This document shows, one piece after another, positions 21,293 to 29,765 of a DNA stretch of 60,652 bases. The notes below the pieces were generated by a model. The model was not told where the DNA came from, searched no databases, and saw nothing but the letters and a program-made list of their open reading frames with translations. The position numbers and the translations under genes were made by a program. Where the stretch lies: positions 1 through 60,652 of IMG/VR virus record IMGVR_UViG_3300038679_000011; one strand, 5' to 3'. The DNA comes from a virus (Duplodnaviria; Caudoviricetes). Each line of letters begins with the position of its first letter. The first letter of the stretch is position 1.

Positions 21293-21505
21293 TTATACGT
21301 TGTCGTTGATACGGTCAATGACCCTGATAGCATCTACAACGGAACTCGCGTCGTTGAAGCCGTTTCGCATAAGTACTGCGTCTGTAGCTTCGTTGCGCAC
21401 AGCTTCGTTCATCACGTCTAACAACGTGCACATTGAACGCTTGAATGCGATACGCTCGTCGTCATCAAGCGTTAATTCCAGAATGATTTTTGTTTTAGTA
21501 AGCAT
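21293..21505 (-). CDS. Hypothetical protein
   Basis: 70 aa, coupled to exonuclease stop. Confidence 0.5.
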   Translation of the reverse strand: MLTKTKIILELTLDDDERIAFKRSMCTLLDVMNEAVRNEATDAVLMRNGFNDASSVVDAIRVIDRINDNV

Positions 21506-22395
21506 CAGAACTCTTCTCCTTCTATTTCGACAGTTAACTTGTCCGCCAGCGGCTTACACAGTTGCAGCGATTTAATTTCCCAGCGCTTGAGGCACTCTAC
21601 AATAAATAGTTCATCATAGACATGTGCTGTTACTTTTAGATCAGCAACATCGATGCATCGAAGTGACATAAGTTGGAAATTCATGTCAAACTTGCCCGAC
21701 TCAAGATGCGTCTTGATTGCATCGAGTTCTTTTGGCTTCCAGTCGCCCGACAAAATCTCTTGCTTCCAGCCAGGAACTGACACTGGCACAGAAGCATCGA
21801 GCCACGAGAGCAGACTAGCAAGGTAAGTGCGGCTTACTCGCGGAGCACCATCTAGGTTATCTGACTTATCGCCGACGATTGCTCGAAACCACGTGAGTAA
21901 GCTAGGCGTTACGCCGTATGTTTTGACTACGCAAGTCTCGTCCCACTCAAATAGCTTGGACTGAAACGACTTGACAACTTTGACATCACGACTGTCATTG
22001 ACGACCCGCAATAAGTCGCTGTCGTTCGTGTAGATTCGGTGACCTGAGCCAGTCGATGCAAGCGCACCCATCACATCGTCTGCTTCGCGGCCGTGGACTT
22101 CGCACTCTGACCAATAGCATCTCAGAAATCGACGTAGCCTTTTCAAGCGCTCGAAGAACTCTGACCCGGCTTTGTGACTTCGGTTAGCTTTGTACCGTGG
22201 GTCCTCTTTACGTCGTTCATTCGTTGGCGAATCCCAGCAGACCACGACGTCTTGCTCGGGATACTTCTTGATGAGCATCTCGATTGCTCGCAGGAAGCCG
22301 TATTCGACTCCGGTGGGTTCGCCGTGCGTGTTCTGTAGAAAATCCATCTTCGCTCGGCATCGGTGCGCGAGCATCATCCCGTCGACTAGCAGCAT
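21505..22395 (-). CDS. 5'-3' exonuclease/flap endonuclease (PolI N-terminal-like)
   Basis: LLVDG, CWDS, RR..DPRYKANR, EADDVMG, TNDSDL and IVGDKSDNLDG motifs. Confidence 0.92.
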   Translation of the reverse strand: MLLVDGMMLAHRCRAKMDFLQNTHGEPTGVEYGFLRAIEMLIKKYPEQDVVVCWDSPTNERRKEDPRYKANRSHKAGSEFFERLKRLRRFLRCYWSECEVHGREADDVMGALASTGSGHRIYTNDSDLLRVVNDSRDVKVVKSFQSKLFEWDETCVVKTYGVTPSLLTWFRAIVGDKSDNLDGAPRVSRTYLASLLSWLDASVPVSVPGWKQEILSGDWKPKELDAIKTHLESGKFDMNFQLMSLRCIDVADLKVTAHVYDELFIVECLKRWEIKSLQLCKPLADKLTVEIEGEEF

Positions 22396-22445
22396 GCATG
22401 TCTCCTACAGGCGCCGTTCGACGGCGTCGTCTACTGAGTTCGATT

Positions 22446-22506
22446 CGACCGGCCTCTATAAAACGACCGGCCTCTATAAAACGACCGGCCTCTATAAAAC
22501 GACCGG
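22446..22506. repeat. 18-bp tandem repeat x3 plus partial copy
   Basis: CGACCGGCCTCTATAAAA. Confidence 0.9.
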
Positions 22507-22532
22507 ATACGTGCCAATGCCGGCCATAATAT

Positions 22533-22644
22533 GGCCTAGAACCGGCCTAGGACGGCCTAGGACGGCATATAGCCTTAAAACCGTATAAACATACCGGTTG
22601 GCCGTTTTATGCCGTCCTAGGCCGTCCTAGGCCGGTTCTAGGCC
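22533..22644. repeat. Perfect 37-bp inverted repeat with 38-bp spacer
   Basis: GGCCTAGAACCGGCCTAGGACGGCCTAGGACGGCATA (22533-22569) and its exact reverse complement (22608-22644). Confidence 0.92.
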
Positions 22645-22816
22645 GTTTACGGTCGTATGTCGACGGTTAGACGGTCGAAAACCGGCATAGGACGGTCTAG
22701 GACGGCCTGGAGTCGCCGGCCGGTGTGATTCGACGACCTGCCGGCATCCGGTCGTCCTAGGCCGTCTGACGACCGTCTGGCGACCCACGGCGACCGGCGG
22801 TACGACTGACAGTGCC

Positions 22817-22866
22817 AAAGCAAAAAGCCCCCGCCCACCGACCGTGTGGCCAGTGAGCGGGGGCTT
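22817..22866 (-). terminator. Rho-independent terminator closing the early operon
   Basis: AAGCCCCCGCTCAC...GTGGGCGGGGGCTT followed by TTTGCTTT on the minus strand. Confidence 0.8.
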
Positions 22867-22905
22867 CAAAAAGATGAACGGTCCTGCGGTGCTACAGCGA
22901 ATGGC

Positions 22906-23088
22906 CTAAGCATTCGCTAATGGCCGTCTTTCAATGAAAGCGCCTTCTGTGTACGACCGTACTGCGAGGAATGCGTTCTTTGCGGTGCTCGCGGTTGACA
23001 CGACGATGTCGAGAACAACGTCGCCGTTTGCGTTCATCACGACGATCTTGTCGTGGTCTTTACGGATTCGGATCGACTTCGTCGTCAT
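22906..23088 (-). CDS. Small hypothetical early protein
   Basis: AAGGAG RBS before MTTKSIRIRK (ATG 23088). Confidence 0.55.
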   Translation of the reverse strand: MTTKSIRIRKDHDKIVVMNANGDVVLDIVVSTASTAKNAFLAVRSYTEGAFIERRPLANA

Positions 23089-23428
23089 CGTCAGTCTCCT
23101 TCTCTTCAAGTTCGTTGAGTTGCTTGTACGTCTCCAACAACTTTTCAATCGACCGTCGGTTCTCTGCCTCAGCGAGTTGTTTTCGTTTGTAGTCGACAAT
23201 CGTTTTTAGTCGCTTGATTTCAGCATCTGATGTCTCGTGCCACTCCGTGAGCTGGCGTTTCTTGGCTTCGGCCTCCGCGATAATCGCATCTTGAGCAGTG
23301 AGCTTGTCTGTGTAGAACTGTTTGTCGCCTCGCTCTCGCCACGTCCTGATGCTGAGCTCACATACCTCTATGGTAGAGTGCAGTACTTTGATGTATTCGC
23401 GTAGCTCAGTCTTGGTCATGTTTTTCAC
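23060..23428 (-). CDS. Coiled-coil hypothetical early protein
   Basis: TATAGGAGATA leader before GTG 23428. Confidence 0.6.
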   Translation of the reverse strand: MKNMTKTELREYIKVLHSTIEVCELSIRTWRERGDKQFYTDKLTAQDAIIAEAEAKKRQLTEWHETSDAEIKRLKTIVDYKRKQLAEAENRRSIEKLLETYKQLNELEEKETDDDDEVDPNP

Positions 23429-23521
23429 AGTACTATCTCCTATAGCAAATGGCCGGGTGCTACATCGCGTATAACACCCGGCCACTGTGACGTCGTCGTA
23501 TTGAACAGTTTACCCGTTGAC

Positions 23522-23959
23522 TCAGGCTTCGTCTTCGGTCTCTTCCTCGGATTTCTTGACCGAGGCCAGAAGGGCATTCACATCGACGCCTTCCTTCTCC
23601 AGCGTCTCGCGAAGCTCGGCCATGCGCTCTTGCAGCTTGATGAGCCGCTTGGCCTTGCCGCGTTCCTTGCCAGCGCCCATCTTCTTTGACTCTTCGGCCT
23701 TCTCGAGCAAAGTCTGGGCTTTGGCCTGGAGCTCTGCGGCCTTGTGCTCGAGGTGGAGGTACTCAGCCTCGAAGGCCGAGCGCTTCAGCGGCTTGAACTT
23801 ACCCCATTCCCAGCCACTGGGGACAGCGACCTTCAACTTACCGTCCTCGAGGCCCGGGAACTCTGGCTTCGACTTCTTCACACGAGCGGGCTTGTCGGCC
23901 TTGTCGGCCTTACCGGGCTTGCTGGTCTTGTCAGCAGTGGGCTTTGCAGGTTTTGCCAT
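23522..23959 (-). CDS. Lys-rich-tail coiled-coil protein, paralog A
   Basis: AAGGAG RBS, MAKPAKPTADK...; clearly similar to 26390..26869. Confidence 0.75.
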   Translation of the reverse strand: MAKPAKPTADKTSKPGKADKADKPARVKKSKPEFPGLEDGKLKVAVPSGWEWGKFKPLKRSAFEAEYLHLEHKAAELQAKAQTLLEKAEESKKMGAGKERGKAKRLIKLQERMAELRETLEKEGVDVNALLASVKKSEEETEDEA

Positions 23960-24158
23960 TACAGTGTCTCCTTTGCAGTGTCTGTGTTTGTGTCTTACGC
24001 TTCTGTTCATGTTCACTTATGTTGTTGCCTCCGTGCTATGTGTATCCGTGACGGTAACGGAGTTCAATGGCCTCCTTTCCTTACTAGATGCTTAAGTTTA
24101 CGACCACTGATTATAGTATCGGGCACGCTTAACGTCGCGTACCGCGTTCGTTGGTCGT

Positions 24159-24256
24159 CGACCTGTCTCATCGGTCACGGTAGGTCATTTCCGTGAGACG
24201 GCGCCGCGGCGGACAAGCAACCAGCTGCTGTTCTGGTTTTACGGCGCCGTTTCGAC
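24159..24256 (-). ncRNA. Type II hammerhead ribozyme (CCGAUGA core variant)
   Basis: GUC-GAAA-stem III ACGGCGCCG/CGGCGCCGU-C-stem I UCACGG/CCGUGA-CCGAUGA-GAC; loop I GACCU pairs with 3' AGGUC; predicted cut 24197|24196. Confidence 0.8.
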
Positions 24257-24649
24257 TCACTGTGAGTCTAATGCATTGAGCTCGTTCTGGAGAGCTTCGA
24301 TGCGCTCCATAAGCTTTTTGTATTTCCTGTCAGCACGTTCCTTCTTCGCGGTCTCACGAGCTTCTCTTGCGGCCTCGCGTTCGGCCTGTGTCGTGAGTCG
24401 GTTCGCGGCACGGTCGTAGTTTGCCGCGAGTCGCTCGAGCTTGTCAGCGAGCAGGTCGAGCTTTGGATCGAATTGCTCACTGAGCTCTTCGTGTTCGACG
24501 CCCATGGCATGGACTTGGTCTGCGATATCTCGGATGATGTTGCCAGTGTTTGTCGTGATCGTCGCGGTCTCGCGTGCGGCCTTCTTGGGGGCGCTCTTGC
24601 TGCTCTTGCTGCTCTTGGTGTTCTTGGTGTTCTTGGTGTTCTTCGCCAT
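24257..24649 (-). CDS. Lys-rich-tail coiled-coil early protein
   Basis: MAKNTKNTKNTKSSKSSKSAPKK; TAGGAGATA leader. Confidence 0.7.
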   Translation of the reverse strand: MAKNTKNTKNTKSSKSSKSAPKKAARETATITTNTGNIIRDIADQVHAMGVEHEELSEQFDPKLDLLADKLERLAANYDRAANRLTTQAEREAAREARETAKKERADRKYKKLMERIEALQNELNALDSQ

Positions 24650-24689
24650 CGTAGTATCTCCTATGCTAAGGCGTTGTAATTGCCGCGGG

Positions 24690-25193
24690 TCACTCGCCAG
24701 CGGCTTCGACTTTTTCTAGCTTCGACTGGAGCTTCATGAGCTCCCTGATCTTCTTTGCGTCCTCAAGTGCCACATGCGAGTGGTTGGCTTCTCCAAATAC
24801 GTGCAACACACACTCGGGTCCGAAGCCCCACTCTACGCTCGCGGGCACTGTTAGCAATCGGCCGCAGCGACCGCAGCGATTTGAGTGCCGCACTCGCATT
24901 CTCGGGTCGAGGTCATTGTCGCTCTTGAGCACTGTGATGAGTCGTTTGAACCACCGAAAGCATGTAGCGCTCTCAGTGACTCGGGATCGGCCAGTAACTT
25001 GAAAGTCATCTTCAAAAAGCGTGCCGATGTACTCATAATTACAGACGTTGTCTGGTCCACTGAGCACCTTGACCCACCACATCGGCTTAGTGTCGTGCTT
25101 GCGGACGTGATACGTGAATCGTTCTCCGGTCAGCGAGTCCTCAAGCGTGAAGAGCGCATTGCCGGCGAGTACGAACTCTTTCCAGTGCCGCAT
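24690..25193 (-). CDS. DUF6011-like Zn-finger protein
   Basis: FVLAGNALFTL...TYHV...LSGPDN...CGRCGRLLTVPASVEWGFGPEC; GGAGG RBS before ATG 25193. Confidence 0.75.
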   Translation of the reverse strand: MRHWKEFVLAGNALFTLEDSLTGERFTYHVRKHDTKPMWWVKVLSGPDNVCNYEYIGTLFEDDFQVTGRSRVTESATCFRWFKRLITVLKSDNDLDPRMRVRHSNRCGRCGRLLTVPASVEWGFGPECVLHVFGEANHSHVALEDAKKIRELMKLQSKLEKVEAAGE

Positions 25194-25194
25194 C

Positions 25195-25542
25195 TCACGC
25201 CTCCGTTTGAAAGTGCTCAGCAAGTGCAGCACGGAAAGTCTTTTCAACGTCGGCTCGAAATTCGATAACGACTGAGTCTGCTTGGTCGTACCACACAGAT
25301 TTAACAGAGCCGCTGCTTCCGCTCGCTAGTTCAAGACAGTTCTCATTGTGGTTCCACCAGATGCACGAGTAGTCATCACTGAGGCGGTACGGCTCGCCCA
25401 TCATGAACGGGTCTAAATCAACAAATGTACTCGCCTGTTTGCGTGCAGTCTGCTGTGGCTGCGCCATATCTGACGTGCCCGTCAGGTACGCGTCGAGACG
25501 CATCAATGACTTTTTGAATGCGGCCTTTGCATCAGCTTTCAT
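25195..25542 (-). CDS. Hypothetical early protein
   Basis: TGTAGGAGACA leader before MKADAK (ATG 25542). Confidence 0.6.
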   Translation of the reverse strand: MKADAKAAFKKSLMRLDAYLTGTSDMAQPQQTARKQASTFVDLDPFMMGEPYRLSDDYSCIWWNHNENCLELASGSSGSVKSVWYDQADSVVIEFRADVEKTFRAALAEHFQTEA

Positions 25543-25566
25543 GTCTTGTCTCCTACAAAAGTCGTC

Positions 25567-25644
25567 GAGTCGTTTTGAGCGACAGTCGCTCGGCTCGGGC
25601 CGGTGCCCGCCCATTGTTGTTACACCGGCCTCCGCGAAATACTG
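25567..25644 (-). ncRNA. Unassigned structured RNA motif, copy B
   Basis: UCGCGGAG-hairpin-CCGAGCCG-AGC hairpin GCU-AAACGACUC, same pattern as 26895-26954. Confidence 0.5.
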
Positions 25645-25869
25645 TCAGTCATGAATGCAATCAAACAAGTCCGTGTCTTGCCAAAAGCGCTTGATCATGA
25701 TCTCTAATGCGAAACGCGTGCCTTGGTACTGAATGACGGGCCAACCTGCGGGTCCCATCGGATCGACAATCTTATACGTGATCTGCATGTCACGCATATA
25801 TCGTCGCAACTCAGGGTTGTGTTCCAGTTCAACGGTGTTCAGTTCGACTTGTTTAAATTCGACTGCCAT
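25645..25869 (-). CDS. Hypothetical early protein
   Basis: TGTAGGAGACA leader before MAVEFK; GPAGWP.I.Y.G motif. Confidence 0.65.
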   Translation of the reverse strand: MAVEFKQVELNTVELEHNPELRRYMRDMQITYKIVDPMGPAGWPVIQYQGTRFALEIMIKRFWQDTDLFDCIHD

Positions 25870-25941
25870 TGTTTTGTCTCCTACAAGGTGTTGAGTCGTT
25901 TGCCCACCCATTGTTGCTACACCGGCCTCCACGAAATACTG

Positions 25942-26211
25942 TTACTTAGGTTCGATCTCGCCCTCGAGCAAGCGTTCGACCTCGCGTTGAATACGTTCCC
26001 ATGGTGCATGCGACGATATTGACTGACTCGGCGTCGGGCCCTTTCGGAGGGCGCCGGCCTTGCCTGTGAAGTAAAGGTCGTCAAGCATAGCGGGCATCTT
26101 GTACGCTCGGTACTTCTTCGAGCGGCAAGACACCTCAGTTCCTCTGTGGCAACCCGTCAACCAGTGATGCAGCAGCTCTTGCTTCGTCATGCGTTCGACT
26201 TGCGTCTTCAT
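25942..26211 (-). CDS. Hypothetical early protein
   Basis: TGTAGGAGACA leader; YFTGKAGALRKG motif. Confidence 0.65.
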   Translation of the reverse strand: MKTQVERMTKQELLHHWLTGCHRGTEVSCRSKKYRAYKMPAMLDDLYFTGKAGALRKGPTPSQSISSHAPWERIQREVERLLEGEIEPK

Positions 26212-26242
26212 GGTCCTGTCTCCTACAAGGTGTTGAATCGTT

Positions 26243-26311
26243 TGACCTGTCTCATCAGCGGTGGGCGGTCACCCACACCGGACGACGTGTGACATCACAC
26301 GTCGTTTCGAC
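26243..26311 (-). ncRNA. Type II hammerhead ribozyme
   Basis: GUC-GAAA-stem III ACGACGUGUG/CACACGUCGU-C-stem I CGGU/ACCG + GGG/CCC-CUGAUGA-GAC; loop UGACC pairs with 3' GGUCA; predicted cut 26281|26280. Confidence 0.92.
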
Positions 26312-26389
26312 TTTAGGAGGCCCGCAGGCTGTGAACCTGCGGGCCCGGTTGGAGGCCCTGCGGCGGAGTGCCGTAGAGAGGCGTGCTGT

Positions 26390-26869
26390 TTACTCCTTGT
26401 CGTTCTTCGCGGTAGCGGCGAGCAGTGCGTCGACATCGATTCCGGCGCTCTTGAGCTCAGCTGTGAGCTCTACGATCTTGTTCCGCATTTTCTCGACCTT
26501 GCGGGCGGCGGAGAGTGTCTTCTTGTCACCGTACTTCGAAGCATCTGCAGCTCGGAGACGCATCTGTGTGGCCTTGTACTCGAAGGCTAGTGCCTTGTGC
26601 TCAAAGTAGAGCTTGTCGTGCGTGAAGTTCTTTTTGGCAAGCGGCTTGTGCGAGCCGAAGCCGAAGCCGTCGGGCATCGCGATGTCGAACGGGCCTGCCT
26701 CGACGTCGAACTTCGTCACCTTCGTCACCTTGGGCGTCTTGGCAGCTTTGACGTCGGTTTCCGGTGCAGTCGCCTTGGTCGCCGGGGTCGCCTTGGTCGC
26801 CGGGGTCGCCTTGGTCGCCGGGGTCGCCTTGGTGGCCTTGCCGCTCGTGGGGTTGACTTTCGTCGTCAT
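26390..26869 (-). CDS. Lys/Ala/Thr-rich-tail coiled-coil protein, paralog B
   Basis: ATKATP x3 (18-bp repeat); KPL...EHKA...GIDVDALLA shared with 23522..23959. Confidence 0.75.
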   Translation of the reverse strand: MTTKVNPTSGKATKATPATKATPATKATPATKATAPETDVKAAKTPKVTKVTKFDVEAGPFDIAMPDGFGFGSHKPLAKKNFTHDKLYFEHKALAFEYKATQMRLRAADASKYGDKKTLSAARKVEKMRNKIVELTAELKSAGIDVDALLAATAKNDKE

Positions 26870-26894
26870 GTTACTATCTCCTATAATATGAGTA

Positions 26895-26954
26895 GAGTCG
26901 TTTAGCAGCACCAACGGCTGCTCGGCTCAGCCCGCCGTAAAGCGGGCTCCGCGA
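26895..26954 (-). ncRNA. Unassigned structured RNA motif, copy A
   Basis: UCGCGGAG-CCCGC/GCGGG-CUGAGCCG-AGCAGC/GCUGCU-AAACGACUC. Confidence 0.5.
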
Positions 26955-27125
26955 GAAGTCGTTAATTATCGCACATTAGTATCAACAATACGTTCGGCGC
27001 TATTGTCATGGCACCACGGCATGCAGTGCAGTTCCATGAAACAACGAGCAGCGTCGCTTGTTACGAAGTACTCGGTACGTTTATTGGTCTTGACGAAAAC
27101 GGTTCGGTCTCTTGGGTAACTTTGA

Positions 27126-27320
27126 CTATTGGTACAGTTCGGTGTACGCGACGAACATGCGCTCGACTTGCTTCTGAAACAGACGTGCGTGGCCTTTGCA
27201 GGCAAATCCGAATTGCACAGAGCACTGTGTGGTCGATCCGAAGAACTCGCCTTTGCACTTGCGAGCAAGGGCGTCGATGGACATCAGCGGTGCGGCAGAT
27301 TGAACTTTTACTCGAGCCAT
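27126..27320 (-). CDS. Hypothetical early protein (possibly frameshifted, may extend to 26966)
   Basis: TGTAGGAGACA leader before ATG 27320; another frame stays open to 26966. Confidence 0.55.
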   Translation of the reverse strand: MARVKVQSAAPLMSIDALARKCKGEFFGSTTQCSVQFGFACKGHARLFQKQVERMFVAYTELYQ

Positions 27321-27351
27321 TGTCTTGTCTCCTACAAGGTGTGGTCGTTTC

Positions 27352-27414
27352 GGCCTGTCTCATCAGTGCCGGGCGGCCAGCCCGCGGCAGACGGCGCCAT
27401 AGCGCCGTTTCGAC
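27352..27414 (-). ncRNA. Type II hammerhead ribozyme
   Basis: GUC-GAAA-stem III ACGGCGC/GCGCCGU-C-stem I UGCC/GGCA + GGGC/GCCC-CUGAUGA-GAC; loop UGGCC pairs with 3' GGCCG; predicted cut 27390|27389. Confidence 0.92.
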
Positions 27415-27649
27415 TAATTGTGGCAGTAATGAGCATGCTCTTGTTTTCGCTGAAGCGCTTTGACGTGGCGAATGTGTTTGCAGTCATGTCGCGGCGTATG
27501 CATCGTCCAACCGGGGCAAGAGCATTGCCATTGATACTTGAGGAACCCTGTGATTACTTCACTGACCACGTACTTTTTCCGCTGTCGCTCGTCACCGAGT
27601 AGCGATTCAGTTGAGCAACGTTTTTGATTCGTGTTTGTCTTGTCGTCAT
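27414..27649 (-). pseudogene. SWIM Zn-finger gene split by a frame break at GGAAAAAG
   Basis: ATG 27649 frame stops at 27554; the -1 frame carries KYVV...WQCSCPGW...CKH. Confidence 0.6.
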
Positions 27650-27679
27650 TGTCTTGTCTCCTACAAGGTGTGGTCGTCG

Positions 27680-27768
27680 TGGCTTGTCTCGTCAGGCGGG
27701 CAGTAGCCAGCTGCGTCGCGAACCGGCAGAGCGTATTCGAGCGAATCTTGCTCATGCCGGGTTTCGAC
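27680..27768 (-). ncRNA. Type II hammerhead ribozyme (CUGACGA core, UUC site, one stem III mismatch)
   Basis: GUC-GAAA-C-CCGGCA/UGCCGG-UUC-stem I GCG/CGC + GCAG/CUGC-CUGACGA-GAC; loop UGGCU pairs with 3' AGCCA; predicted cut 27720|27719. Confidence 0.78.
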
Positions 27769-27770
27769 TC

Positions 27771-28150
27771 TTTGACTTGGGTGGACTGTCCAGTGCGCTG
27801 TAAGGTACGGTGCGTCATCGCCGTCGTAGCTGCCTCATGTTGCAGCATGGTAGCAGTTCAGCTCGTCGTATGCGATCGCATCTTGTCGAGCAAACGCGTT
27901 CCCGTGTTACGGTCGCCTCAGATCGTCCTGGCGTCGTTTCACCCGGCCATAGCCAGCGGTGTATCAGCCTCTTGCTGCTACCAGCCCATGATCCCCACCT
28001 TACTCCCTTCGGTCCGCGGCATCGTCGTATTCGAGCGAATCTTGACGACCCAGGGTCCGAAGCTTTCGGCAGGGGACAAGCGGTAAGTCAGGTCCCGTGC
28101 GGGATTCAAGCCGTTACGTCGGTCCGCAGCAGGCTGCGTTCGGCTTCGTG
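27771..28150 (-). ncRNA. Candidate large structured non-coding RNA (unassigned)
   Basis: No RBS-led ORF; nested helices UGACUU/AAGUCA, GUCCCC/GGGGAU, CUUCGG/CCGAAG, UGGUAGCAG/CUGCUACCA and pseudoknot GUAAGGU/ACCUUAC. Confidence 0.6.
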
Positions 28151-28183
28151 TTATTCAATTTTCAATTCAATCCATTGAGTATC

Positions 28184-28212
28184 ATTTTAACCAATTGGTT
28201 CATCATGGTACA
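28184..28212 (-). promoter_or_regulatory. Putative sigma70-like early promoter
   Basis: TGTACC-17 bp-TAAAAT with AT-rich upstream sequence; same architecture as 43280-43308. Confidence 0.55.
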
Positions 28213-28262
28213 CAGGAAAATTGGAAAAACGTCACAAATTACTAAAATTTTCTCTTGTGACG

Positions 28263-28345
28263 TAAGTCGTGTTATACCCTGGACTTATACCTCAAAGCCT
28301 GGGTCAATCGGGTCGTCTCTAAGTCGTGCTATACCCTGGACTTAT
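28263..28345. promoter_or_regulatory. Two 26-bp direct repeats, each a TAAGTC-N13-GACTTA dyad
   Basis: TAAGTCGTGYTATACCCTGGACTTAT at 28263 and 28320. Confidence 0.7.
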
Positions 28346-28520
28346 GAATGCCACCTGAGGCCACCAGAGGCTCTAGGACGGCCTATCGGCCTATTCAATC
28401 GAATCGTATTGACCAGGGGTCGACATCGACCTGGGCAGCCTCAGGTGGCATCCTATACATCGTCACGACGACACGCCGGTCGCATGGTACGCCGAACTAC
28501 TCTGGCTTGTACCCGCCGAA

Positions 28521-29765
28521 CTACTCTGGCTTGTACCCGCCGAACGCGTCGAACCACGTGTCGCTTCGTGGGTCATCGTAATGAACGAGCCGGTCAAGCA
28601 TCGCATCGACGAGTTCGAAGTTGGGGCGAGTGACACTTTTCCAGTACGCGAGCTCGTCGCTATACCGTATCGGGTCCTCAAGTTCGTTGACTCGCCGCTT
28701 GAAGTCGCCCGGTCGAGCTACTCTCCAGTCAGATTCGAGCGATAAGTACTGCTCAAGTGCATCGTAGGTCAGCGTGTGCTCGCCGTCGCCGAAGAGTAGC
28801 GGTACGCAGTTCTGCGACGTAAGGAAGTGAATCTTATTTGTCACGAACCGCGGGCCTGGCGCTACGCATGGGCAACACACACTTGCAGCCATCGCCGCAG
28901 CGCACTCGCTGAGCAACACGCACCCAGCGAACATCGGCCGAAGTGCATCGTATCGATGGTAATGTTCCCAGTCGCGGCCATAGATTTTGACGTCGCGGTT
29001 CATGAGTTCGACTGCGTCTTCCGTCGGCGATAGGATCGTGTCGAATGCACTCACGCGGTTATCACGTCCGTGGAACTTCGAATGCATGTAGCAGTGCGCT
29101 ATGATGCACGCAGGAACGTCTTTTATTACGTCTTTTACTTTTGGAGTCCACGTCCAACTCTCAGTCTGGCTCAGCACAGAGCGACGCAAGAACTGCTTGC
29201 CGCCTACAGTAACTCGCTTGTCGCATGCAGTCTGGTCGAGTAACGCAAGCGGACGCGTCCACTCAAATCCCCATGACATCTCTTGGTTGCGAGGGTAGCT
29301 GCGGATGTCGTTGTTGATGAGGAACCGCGGGATCTTGTAGCGCTCGAGCACGTGTAGCATCGGAGCGACGTAGCGCACTGACATCGCTGCGGGTCGTGAT
29401 CCTTCGGGGTTGTTGATGAAGCCAGTGCTCGTGGGCATGCCGGTAAACTCCAGCATGCACAGCGGGTTCCAAAACGGCAGCGCCTCGAGAGCGGCCTCGT
29501 CCCGGGCGAACCCACGCTCTTGCATCCGCTGCGTCGTGAACTCATCGAAGCCCTTGACGTACGGCTCGATGACGTGAACGCCGTCAAGACTTGGTCCGTC
29601 CCATCGTCCGAAGTAGACGACGTCCCATCGGTCAGTTTCGACGAGATGCCTGAGCAAGCCTTCGATTTCGCCCATTGTATGCATCGCAGACGACGGATGG
29701 TCCATCTCGCGAATGCGCATCGTCACGCCCGCTTTTGTTACTATGATGGTGTGTCGAGCTGTCAT
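28521..29765 (-). CDS. GT-B-fold glycosyltransferase-like protein, probable DNA glycosyltransferase
   Basis: 414 aa; LINNDIR, KIYGRDW and FVTNKIHF...CVPLL resemble the GT-B sugar-nucleotide lobe; last gene of the pol/TS operon. Confidence 0.5.
   Translation of the reverse strand: MTARHTIIVTKAGVTMRIREMDHPSSAMHTMGEIEGLLRHLVETDRWDVVYFGRWDGPSLDGVHVIEPYVKGFDEFTTQRMQERGFARDEAALEALPFWNPLCMLEFTGMPTSTGFINNPEGSRPAAMSVRYVAPMLHVLERYKIPRFLINNDIRSYPRNQEMSWGFEWTRPLALLDQTACDKRVTVGGKQFLRRSVLSQTESWTWTPKVKDVIKDVPACIIAHCYMHSKFHGRDNRVSAFDTILSPTEDAVELMNRDVKIYGRDWEHYHRYDALRPMFAGCVLLSECAAAMAASVCCPCVAPGPRFVTNKIHFLTSQNCVPLLFGDGEHTLTYDALEQYLSLESDWRVARPGDFKRRVNELEDPIRYSDELAYWKSVTRPNFELVDAMLDRLVHYDDPRSDTWFDAFGGYKPE

Follow-up and report, generated by a model that had tools for sequence, protein, structure and literature searches.

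A two-hairpin RNA element that shares the hammerhead slot in a small-gene operon of a groundwater phage

The window analysed here is the whole of IMG/VR record IMGVR_UViG_3300038679_000011, a groundwater phage (Duplodnaviria; Caudoviricetes) whose complete genome of 60,652 bp has direct terminal repeats at its ends, and the subject is a short RNA element found in two full copies (A and B) and one remnant (C) within a run of small genes. All long open reading frames (ORFs) lie on the minus strand across the window, and the recognisable proteins include a family A DNA polymerase, a primase, an SNF2 helicase, a terminase and tail proteins; an RNA polymerase was not found among the ten largest proteins. 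The small genes run on the minus strand from ~28150 to 22820, roughly 5.3 kb, and in most cases a leader of near-identical sequence, U(G/A)UAGGAGA(C/U)A, stands 6-8 nucleotides (nt) upstream of the start codon. A consensus promoter scan of the minus strand from 28150 to 22900 returned no promoter-like site, and because this result was combined with a single strong terminator at the end of the run (Table 1), the small genes were treated as one polycistronic unit. Cassettes made of a structure, a leader and a small gene have been shuffled and duplicated within it, and the leaders themselves form repeat families D2-D4.

Four hammerhead or hammerhead-like elements occur in this operon, all of them placed between a stop codon and the leader. 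A second structured RNA motif, distinct from the hammerheads, occupies the same slot elsewhere in the operon, as the initial annotation of this DNA had proposed. That annotation also placed all three copies between a stop codon and the leader, which is correct for B and C, where UCG begins 8 nt past the upstream stop. For A the placement is less secure: 170 nt separate it from the end of its annotated upstream gene at 27126, and the only ORF nearer to it, of 23 codons and stopping 11 nt before A, has no ribosome-binding site and is unsupported.

Read on the minus strand, copy A consists of UCGCGGAG, hairpin 1 (GCCCGC-UUUACG-GCGGGC), UGAGCCG, hairpin 2 (AGCAGC-CGUUGGU-GCUGCU) and AAACGACUC. Copy B follows the same order with UCGCGGAG, hairpin 1 (GGCCGGUG-17 nt-CACCGGCC), CGAGCCG, hairpin 2 (AGCGA-CUG-UCGCU) and CAAAACGACUC. 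The blocks common to both are thus UCGCGGAG, YGAGCCG, the AGC...GCU that closes hairpin 2, and (CA)AAACGACUC. Coordinates and sequences matched the motif as originally described for the minus strand; the boundary then given for B (25644) takes in seven extra upstream nt, CAGUAUU. Copy C retains CAGUAUUUCGUGGAGGCCGGUGUAGCAACAAUGGGUGGGC and continues directly with AAACGACUC, having lost ~29 nt internally relative to B, to which it is 93% identical over 42 nt (family D13). The deletion removed hairpin 2, the YGAGCCG linker before it and the 3' strand of hairpin 1, so C keeps the 5' half only, as had been noted before, and the structure cannot form there (z +0.55).

The likeness of A and B is not due to chance. 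The inter-hairpin block GAGCCGAGC has two exact occurrences in the 60,652 bases, one in each copy. A covariance model built from A alone, with a self score of 96.5 bits, gave B a score of 38.6 bits at E 9e-9; the highest-scoring unrelated match reached 14.7 bits and C 10.7 bits. The model built from both copies, run on the phage's own genome as a positive control, scored B at 94.7, A at 79.9 and the remnant C at 11.6 bits. The stems vary in sequence and still pair, in line with the initial annotation: 14 of the 18 modelled pairs are invariant between A and B, 4 are changed on both sides (two per hairpin) and none is broken. The innermost modelled pair of hairpin 2 is impossible in B, where it would leave a loop of 1 nt; it is one of the invariant pairs, and the count of 0/18 broken is unaffected. 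A random-placement calculation, made on an alignment of A and B that had been fitted to structure, gave ~8e-6 for 8 substitutions on 24 stem positions producing 4 restored Watson-Crick pairs. The two-sequence shuffle control, which is weak with two sequences, gave 36/500. Identity in the non-helical junction was 22/23 as compared to 16/24 in the stems (Fisher p = 0.023), and the loops of A and B are not alignable (6 vs 17 nt in hairpin 1, 7 vs 3 nt in hairpin 2). The compensation in the stems and the near-identity of the junction together indicate that pairing is selected in the former and sequence in the latter. The element is real, under selection and outside the described families. Three DNA runs carried the same sequence and contribute no covariation, because they contain no variant letters.

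Both hairpins were present in the minimum free energy (MFE) structure and in the centroid of A (z -2.10) and B (z -1.52), and these two hairpins are the only robust parts of the predicted fold. RNAalifold, applied separately to the alignment, returned them together with a 2-bp GC/GC closure of hairpin 1 across a 3x3 GGA/YGA loop. The three-way junction with a GAG/CUC pseudoknot suggested earlier is not supported, its junction helices being of low probability and marginal in energy. The three-way junction gains ~1.5 kcal/mol over the hairpins alone (-22.4 vs -20.9 kcal/mol in A, -21.1 vs -19.6 kcal/mol in B) and lies 6-7 kcal/mol above the MFE. Pair probabilities were 0.02-0.08 for UCG/CGA (P1), and for CGG/CCG (P2) they were 0.23 in A and <=0.02 in B. 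An alternative helix around hairpin 2, GAGCCG/CGACUC, has 5/6 pairs and appears in the MFE of A with longer context, and it is also marginal. Each of the two arrangements lies within ~2-4 kcal/mol of the hairpins alone, both at low probability, and neither was retained. UCG/CGA, CGG/CCG and the other junction helices are beyond the reach of the covariation test because they are identical in both copies.

The initial annotation had counted AAACGAC as part of the motif. The same block trails the hammerheads of the operon (GAAACGACC, CAAACGAUUC, CGACGACC), and it reads as at least partly shared leader. CUC follows AAACGAC only in the three leaders behind element copies, the four hammerhead leaders having UUC, CCA, CCA and CCA, which is a small point for some GAG/CUC contact.

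Table 1. Element copies, leaders, hammerheads and terminator of the small-gene operon.
Feature	Position	Strand	Details and basis
Copy A, 60 nt	26895..26954	minus	upstream of the 159-aa gene 26869..26390
Copy A, hairpin 1	26929..26948	minus	basal A-U pair; MFE, centroid, RNAalifold
Copy A, inter-hairpin block GAGCCGAGC	26920..26928	minus	exact match
Copy A, hairpin 2	26904..26922	minus	MFE, centroid, RNAalifold
Leader and ribosome-binding site after A	26870..26894	minus	UAUAGGAGAUAGUAAC, then AUG at 26869
Copy B, 71 nt	25567..25637	minus	upstream of the 115-aa gene 25542..25195
Copy B, hairpin 1	25598..25630	minus	MFE, centroid, RNAalifold
Copy B, inter-hairpin block GAGCCGAGC	25588..25596	minus	exact match
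Copy B, hairpin 2	25578..25590	minus	MFE, centroid, pair probabilities
Leader and ribosome-binding site after B	25543..25566	minus	UUUUGUAGGAGACAAGAC, then AUG at 25542
Copy C, deletion paralog of B	25893..25941	minus	repeat family D13
Hammerhead-like, long stem III	~27686..27768	minus	GUCGAAAC ... CUGACGAGAC; by eye
Type II hammerhead	27349..27415	minus	RF02276, 57.2 bits (gathering score 37)
Type II hammerhead	26241..26312	minus	RF02276, 46 bits
Hammerhead-like, sub-threshold	24157..24257	minus	RF02276, 26.1 bits (gathering score 37)
Intrinsic terminator, strong	22824..22867	minus	20-bp stem and U run, closes the operon; terminator scan

The hammerheads are themselves in different states. 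The core of the sub-threshold element, CCGAUGAG at 24174-24165, has C at the expected U4, and this element may be an impaired ribozyme. The hammerhead-like element at ~27768 is absent from the Rfam list at E<=10. The slot at 23524-23429 begins with UGAGUCAAC, continues with a stem-I-like hairpin (GGCCGGGUG...CACCCGGCC) similar to hairpin 1 of B and then with the leader UAUAGGAGAUAGUAC; no CUGAUGA core was found in it, and it looks like a hammerhead relic. A strong hairpin with no U tract, GGGCCCGCAGG-UUCACA-GCCUGCGGGCC, lies at 26319-26346 between the stop of gene 26869..26390 and the hammerhead that begins at 26312.

In Rfam 15 (4,227 families) no match at the gathering score was obtained on A or B in a search of the whole window, and at E<=10 nothing overlapped A or B in searches of 14 kb and of 1.4 kb, the latter with the laxest filters. 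The covariance models of hammerhead, twister, twister-sister, pistol, hatchet, HDV-like, hairpin and glmS ribozymes gave no match on A or B at E<=10. The motif fits none of the known self-cleaving classes, in agreement with the earlier judgement by eye on the hammerhead, twister, pistol and HDV-like consensus. The same searches scored the genuine local hammerheads at 46-57 bits. Copy C had a sole Rfam overlap, with an RNA thermometer family (16.6 bits vs a gathering score of 88). The hammerhead core, CUGANGA ... GAAA, is not formed: A has CUGAGCCG and B has CCGAGCCG, and GAAA is found in neither. Hairpin 2 is followed by UAAAC in A and UCAAAAC in B, with U instead of G at the G12 position, and CGGA rather than an NUH triplet stands 5' of hairpin 1. 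UCG/CGA, at the probabilities given above, is the candidate for the third helix of a hammerhead, and the three-helix form was not obtained.

Several other functions were considered for the element and rejected. The terminator scan was negative at A, B and C, where the hairpins are trailed by UGAGCCG or AAACGAC and have no U tract. ARAGORN found 0 tRNA-like or tmRNA genes in the window. A sigma-70-like promoter site was not found on the minus strand at the element, and the likeness of the leader (ACGACUC ... UAUAGGAGA) to a T7 promoter has the wrong spacing, with no single-subunit RNA polymerase among the 10 largest proteins. A kink-turn was discarded in a hand check against the consensus, the GA dinucleotides being misplaced. 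A stimulator of stop-codon read-through was set aside as well: a UGA lies in frame inside A, and the two gaps that contain hammerheads are out of phase. The frame is open and in phase from stop to AUG across B (25543-25644, 102 nt, 34 codons) and across C (25870-25941, 72 nt, 24 codons), probably by chance.

The element is also short for a T7-type RNase III site. Such sites consist of an irregular duplex of ~20 bp in a single hairpin, and hairpin 1 with its closure and 3x3 loop amounts to 11 (A) or 13 (B) pair-equivalents. The T7 early-gene sites, of which R1.1 is an example, lie between genes and are hairpins whose internal loop is conserved; after the cut, the upstream message ends in a 3' hairpin that protects it. 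The element resembles R1.1 as an intergenic hairpin with an internal loop in a polycistronic phage mRNA; it differs in having two hairpins, the longest helix comprising 11-13 pairs, whereas the T7 site is a single irregular hairpin of about two helical turns.

Homologs were sought in phage, metagenome and bacterial sequences. The scans of IMG/VR and GTDB needed exact sequence blocks, and their sensitivity was therefore limited to near-exact copies. With the pattern CGCGGAG-gap-GAGCCGAGC, 0 of the 119 foreign IMG/VR stretches listed continued with an AGC...GCU hairpin and AAACGA (by eye), and with a three-block pattern 0 of 36 stretches folded as two hairpins. In GTDB (one genome per species) the three-block pattern gave at least 121 matches in at least 120 stretches, and among the best 15 by hairpin energy none was convincing. 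The scan with a 17-mer of the leader returned one stretch, a chance match within unrelated sequence. Blastn of A and B against 50,697 phage records (INPHARED) gave short chance matches inside genes only, and 6 kb of the region had no near match in INPHARED. The two-copy covariance model returned 0 matches at E<=10 in 28 hammerhead-leader loci (243,917 bases), and 0 in 10 whole records of hammerhead-bearing phages. In all, 15 whole virus records, these 10 included, yielded no homolog. The search for covarying homologs proposed by the initial annotation thus produced none in the near-exact blocks and few dozen records covered, and covariation was seen only between the two copies of one genome. 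A catalytic reading is weakened because no homolog was found, though diverged copies lay outside the reach of these searches.

Relatives of the phage itself were few. Eight IMG/VR loci encode relatives of its DNA polymerase (24-49% identity), and the best relative in INPHARED is 39.7% identical. A leader with an upstream ribozyme occurs in none of the 8 loci, and 5 whole records of polymerase relatives contained no hammerhead. For the 159-aa protein encoded after A, none of 3,261 protein-database candidates was homologous and an alignment search of IMG/VR was empty. The DUF6011 protein of gene 25193..24690 has 64 homologs, the closest four at 51-65% identity on contigs of 1.2-11 kb, and a search of IMG/VR with this protein gave no match. 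Through it the nearest retrievable relative was obtained, a metagenome contig of 1,015 bp that carries a hammerhead 3' end (CUGAUGAGAC) and then the leader UAUAGGAG directly before the homolog of gene 25193..24690. In the window, that gene is preceded by copy B, its leader and one extra gene. The equivalence of the two slots is supported because the hammerhead end in the contig stands where the window has copy B and a gene.

Repeated cassettes of the form stop-hammerhead-tail-UAGGAGAYA-AUG were found in unrelated IMG/VR phages: locus L306, an 18-kb contig, has seven within 4.3 kb, L311 has three, and L304 and L320 have two apiece. L325 was listed alongside L320 as a cassette bearer. The hammerhead-free slots of the L306, L311, L304 and L320 phages hold plain hairpins, and non-catalytic structures in this slot are normal on that account.

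The reading that we place first, and tentatively, is that the element is a phage-private punctuation element of the mRNA that does not cleave itself and whose junction is read by a protein. Hairpin 1 would provide a 3' structure for the upstream cistron. Hairpin 2 would provide a 5' structure for the downstream cistron and insulate its leader and ribosome-binding site from upstream sequence. A sequence-specific surface for the protein would be offered by the invariant junction (UCGCGGA, YGAGCCG and GCU-AAACGACUC, ~23 bases). That protein could be a regulator that binds RNA, or an endoribonuclease whose cut falls within the linker or next to it. Placed between the stop codon and the URUAGGAGAYA leader, the element would perform the task of the hammerhead without catalysis. 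Three parts of this reading are inferred: activity in the form of RNA, recognition by a protein, and cutting or stabilisation as the outcome.

The slot held in common with hammerheads, the single transcription unit and the location of all genes on the minus strand are points for the punctuation reading. So are the score of B with the model from A, the four double changes with no broken pair, the tighter constraint on the junction than on the stems, and the hammerhead 3' end in the 1,015-bp metagenome contig. It was also favoured because the base rate of ribozymes among such motifs is low, because similar phages have plain hairpins in the slot, because the element is restricted to one genome, and because it has no GAAA, no full CUGANGA and no match to a catalytic family.

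In its position after a stop codon and before an AAACGA-like tail, the UAGGAGAYA leader and AUG, the element is like the type II hammerhead (RF02276). It is also similar in size (60-71 nt vs 67-101 nt for the hammerheads of the same operon), in having a GC-rich hairpin followed by CYGA, and in the company it keeps, the hammerhead-leader cassette being repeated up to seven times in other phages. Unlike the hammerhead, it has no GAAA, no stem III hairpin and no NUH site, CYGAGCCG replaces CUGANGA, and U stands at G12. RAGATH families are included in Rfam; the element matches no RAGATH family as far as these are present in Rfam 15, and it occurs in one phage genome only. Like the RAGATH motifs, it is a structured RNA kept company by hammerheads. 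Those motifs were identified through association with hammerhead and twister, and according to a 2024 paper 3 proved to be ribozymes, the other 33 being of unknown function (PMC11061315). Twister-sister, pistol and hatchet were found by genomic neighbourhood (PMC6765202), the logic followed in the initial annotation. Like the element, they are of small size and combine variable stems with a conserved junction; the element has no covariance-model match to any of the three. Bacterial ribozymes are described as clustering together, new classes having been discovered through this clustering, and the role of bacterial and phage hammerheads as largely elusive, with processing of polycistronic mRNA suggested (PMC6765202).

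A number of observations weigh against a punctuation element read by a protein. Each statistic is fragile because there are only two independent copies, both in one genome. A nuclease or RNA-binding domain was absent from the 10 operon proteins scanned (Pfam, PHROGs). RNase E recognition is AU-rich and T4 RegB recognises GGAG in ribosome-binding sites, and the GC-rich linker is unlike either; the extended hairpin 1, at ~11-13 pair-equivalents, is short for RNase III. An invariant junction combined with free stems and loops is also typical of small ribozymes and aptamers. The element may moreover be dispensable, because the slot of copy C lost it while the gene stayed.

In a groundwater metatranscriptome run, 8 short contigs (depth 2.6-13) mapped to 22000-29000, and an RNA library thus contains portions of the operon. 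A pair of these contigs at 25643-25960 spans copy C and ends 6 nt before UCGCGGAG of B, and the end of another contig coincides with the first base of the 27768 hammerhead-like element. These ends were rejected as evidence for RNA ends: contigs from a single study at low depth cannot show ends, and the stretches left uncovered are meaningless.

Among the other explanations, the one that survives best, though we regard it as unlikely, is that the element is a decayed or rearranged descendant of the phage's type II hammerhead that matters as a stabilising pair of hairpins, the shared blocks being due to descent and cassette recombination. By eye, parts of the element are similar to the 3' half of the local type II hammerheads. 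Hairpin 1 followed by CYGA recalls stem I followed by CUGAUGA. Hairpin 1 of B (CCGGUGU...CACCGG) resembles stem I of the hammerhead at 26312 (CGGUGU...CACCG), and there is a likeness between GCCG-[hairpin 2]-AAACGAC and the hammerhead tail AGGCCGAAACGACC. Elsewhere in the operon, decay is seen in the CCGAUGAG core, in the UGAGUCAAC slot and in the deletion of copy C. Descent from a hammerhead is plausible because of these resemblances by eye and the decaying hammerheads. The hammerhead model, however, finds nothing on A or B at E<=10, so that the homology is one seen by eye, and neutral descent leaves a junction identical at 22/23 positions unexplained next to 8 stem substitutions and unalignable loops.

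Somewhat less probable is a new class of self-cleaving ribozyme, in which the ~23 invariant junction bases would be the catalytic core, with two variable helices and possibly a small three-way junction, and would separate the cistrons. A conserved junction with variable stems, a slot shared with four hammerhead or hammerhead-like elements and the lack of a match to any known family are what such a class would look like. CUC, restricted to the leaders of the element, fits the GAG/CUC contact or the GAGCCG/CGACUC helix (5/6 pairs). Known classes run to hundreds of members; here neither the scans for near-exact blocks nor the model searches of a few dozen records gave a homolog, with a positive control that worked for the model, and the junction helices are of low predicted probability. 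Earlier classes were discovered by proximity to hammerheads and twisters (PMC6765202), and the base rate among hammerhead-associated motifs is low, at 3 vs 33 (PMC11061315). Such a ribozyme, of ~60 nt, could have arisen from a type II hammerhead that lost stem III together with its GAAA strand and acquired another helix, and it would substitute for the hammerhead at two junctions.

That the element is a cis-acting regulatory RNA with no processing, either a translational operator of the two downstream genes or a put-like antiterminator that modifies the polymerase, appears improbable to a further degree. The putL and putR sites of phage HK022 are two adjacent stem-loops of ~60-70 nt, two per genome, with covarying stems and conserved unpaired bases. 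The element is like them in its adjacent stem-loops, its size, its covarying stems, its conserved unpaired bases and its presence twice in the phage genome. Each copy stands immediately 5' of a ribosome-binding site, and the GGA in UCGCGGAG and the GGA in the leader could form a paired protein-binding site. Unlike the put sites, which are just downstream of early promoters, the copies lie between cistrons in hammerhead slots, 1.3 kb apart in one operon and not beside promoters. No internal intrinsic terminator is present to be overridden, and the two downstream proteins are unrelated and have no assigned function. Least probable by far is a site that acts at the level of DNA, as a binding site for a protein or a recombination boundary of a mobile gene cassette with incidental hairpins: the cassettes are shuffled and duplicated (B and C at 93% over 42 nt, leader families D2-D4) and the strand is not fixed by structure alone because the stem pairs are all Watson-Crick, but duplex DNA needs no four compensatory double substitutions, and the genes and transcripts are on the strand where the element sits between stop codon and ribosome-binding site.

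Further features were observed in and around the operon. At its upstream end, a stretch of ~380 nt at 27770-28150 (minus) has no convincing ORF and is bounded on one side by an AT-rich, promoter-like region (~28270-28150) and on the other by the first hammerhead-like element. It is covered by the deepest RNA contig (depth 13), has no Rfam match, and may represent a noncoding RNA or else a structured 5' leader of some length. A 19-nt repeat that bears a palindrome, CAAGAUUCGCUCGAAUACG (minus), is exact at 28026-28044 and 27732-27750 and occurs as variants at 27867-27885 and 28390-28408 (families D7/D9); in the hammerhead-like element at ~27768-27686, the extended stem III is formed by one of the exact copies.

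The gene after copy A (26390-26869) has a paralog at 23522-23959 in the same operon and a homolog in the metagenome relative (L176, 674-1015), with 32-35% identity. All three share an N terminus rich in lysine, the motif P-x-G-F/W ... H/F-K-P-L and a coiled-coil tail, and have no family match. Nine-base tandem repeats at 26760-26846 encode KATPAT units, and the spike in depth to 41 at 26680-26913 arises because these repeats attract many unrelated high-GC contigs.

Past the terminator, a gap of 513 nt (22396-22908) upstream of the 296-aa gene 22395..21505 contains a very long inverted repeat, and its predicted fold is at -282 kcal/mol. Within the gap, 22532-22714 gave microRNA-like chance hits in Rfam, and 22446-22506 holds three exact 18-nt tandem repeats; the gap may be a replication origin or iteron region.

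With two copies in one genome, the element is a good and cheap candidate for a cleavage assay and not a discovery. The repeated hammerhead cassette appears to be a widespread design of phage operons and is worth separate study. The present operon mixes hammerheads, decayed hammerheads and an unrelated-looking element before a uniform leader. It is in this respect a natural experiment, in which the two-hairpin element presumably shares or replaces the function of the hammerhead in the slot. Self-cleavage would make the element a new ribozyme class whose evolutionary link to the hammerhead is visible; if a protein is needed, that protein would be a processing or regulatory factor able to replace a ribozyme.

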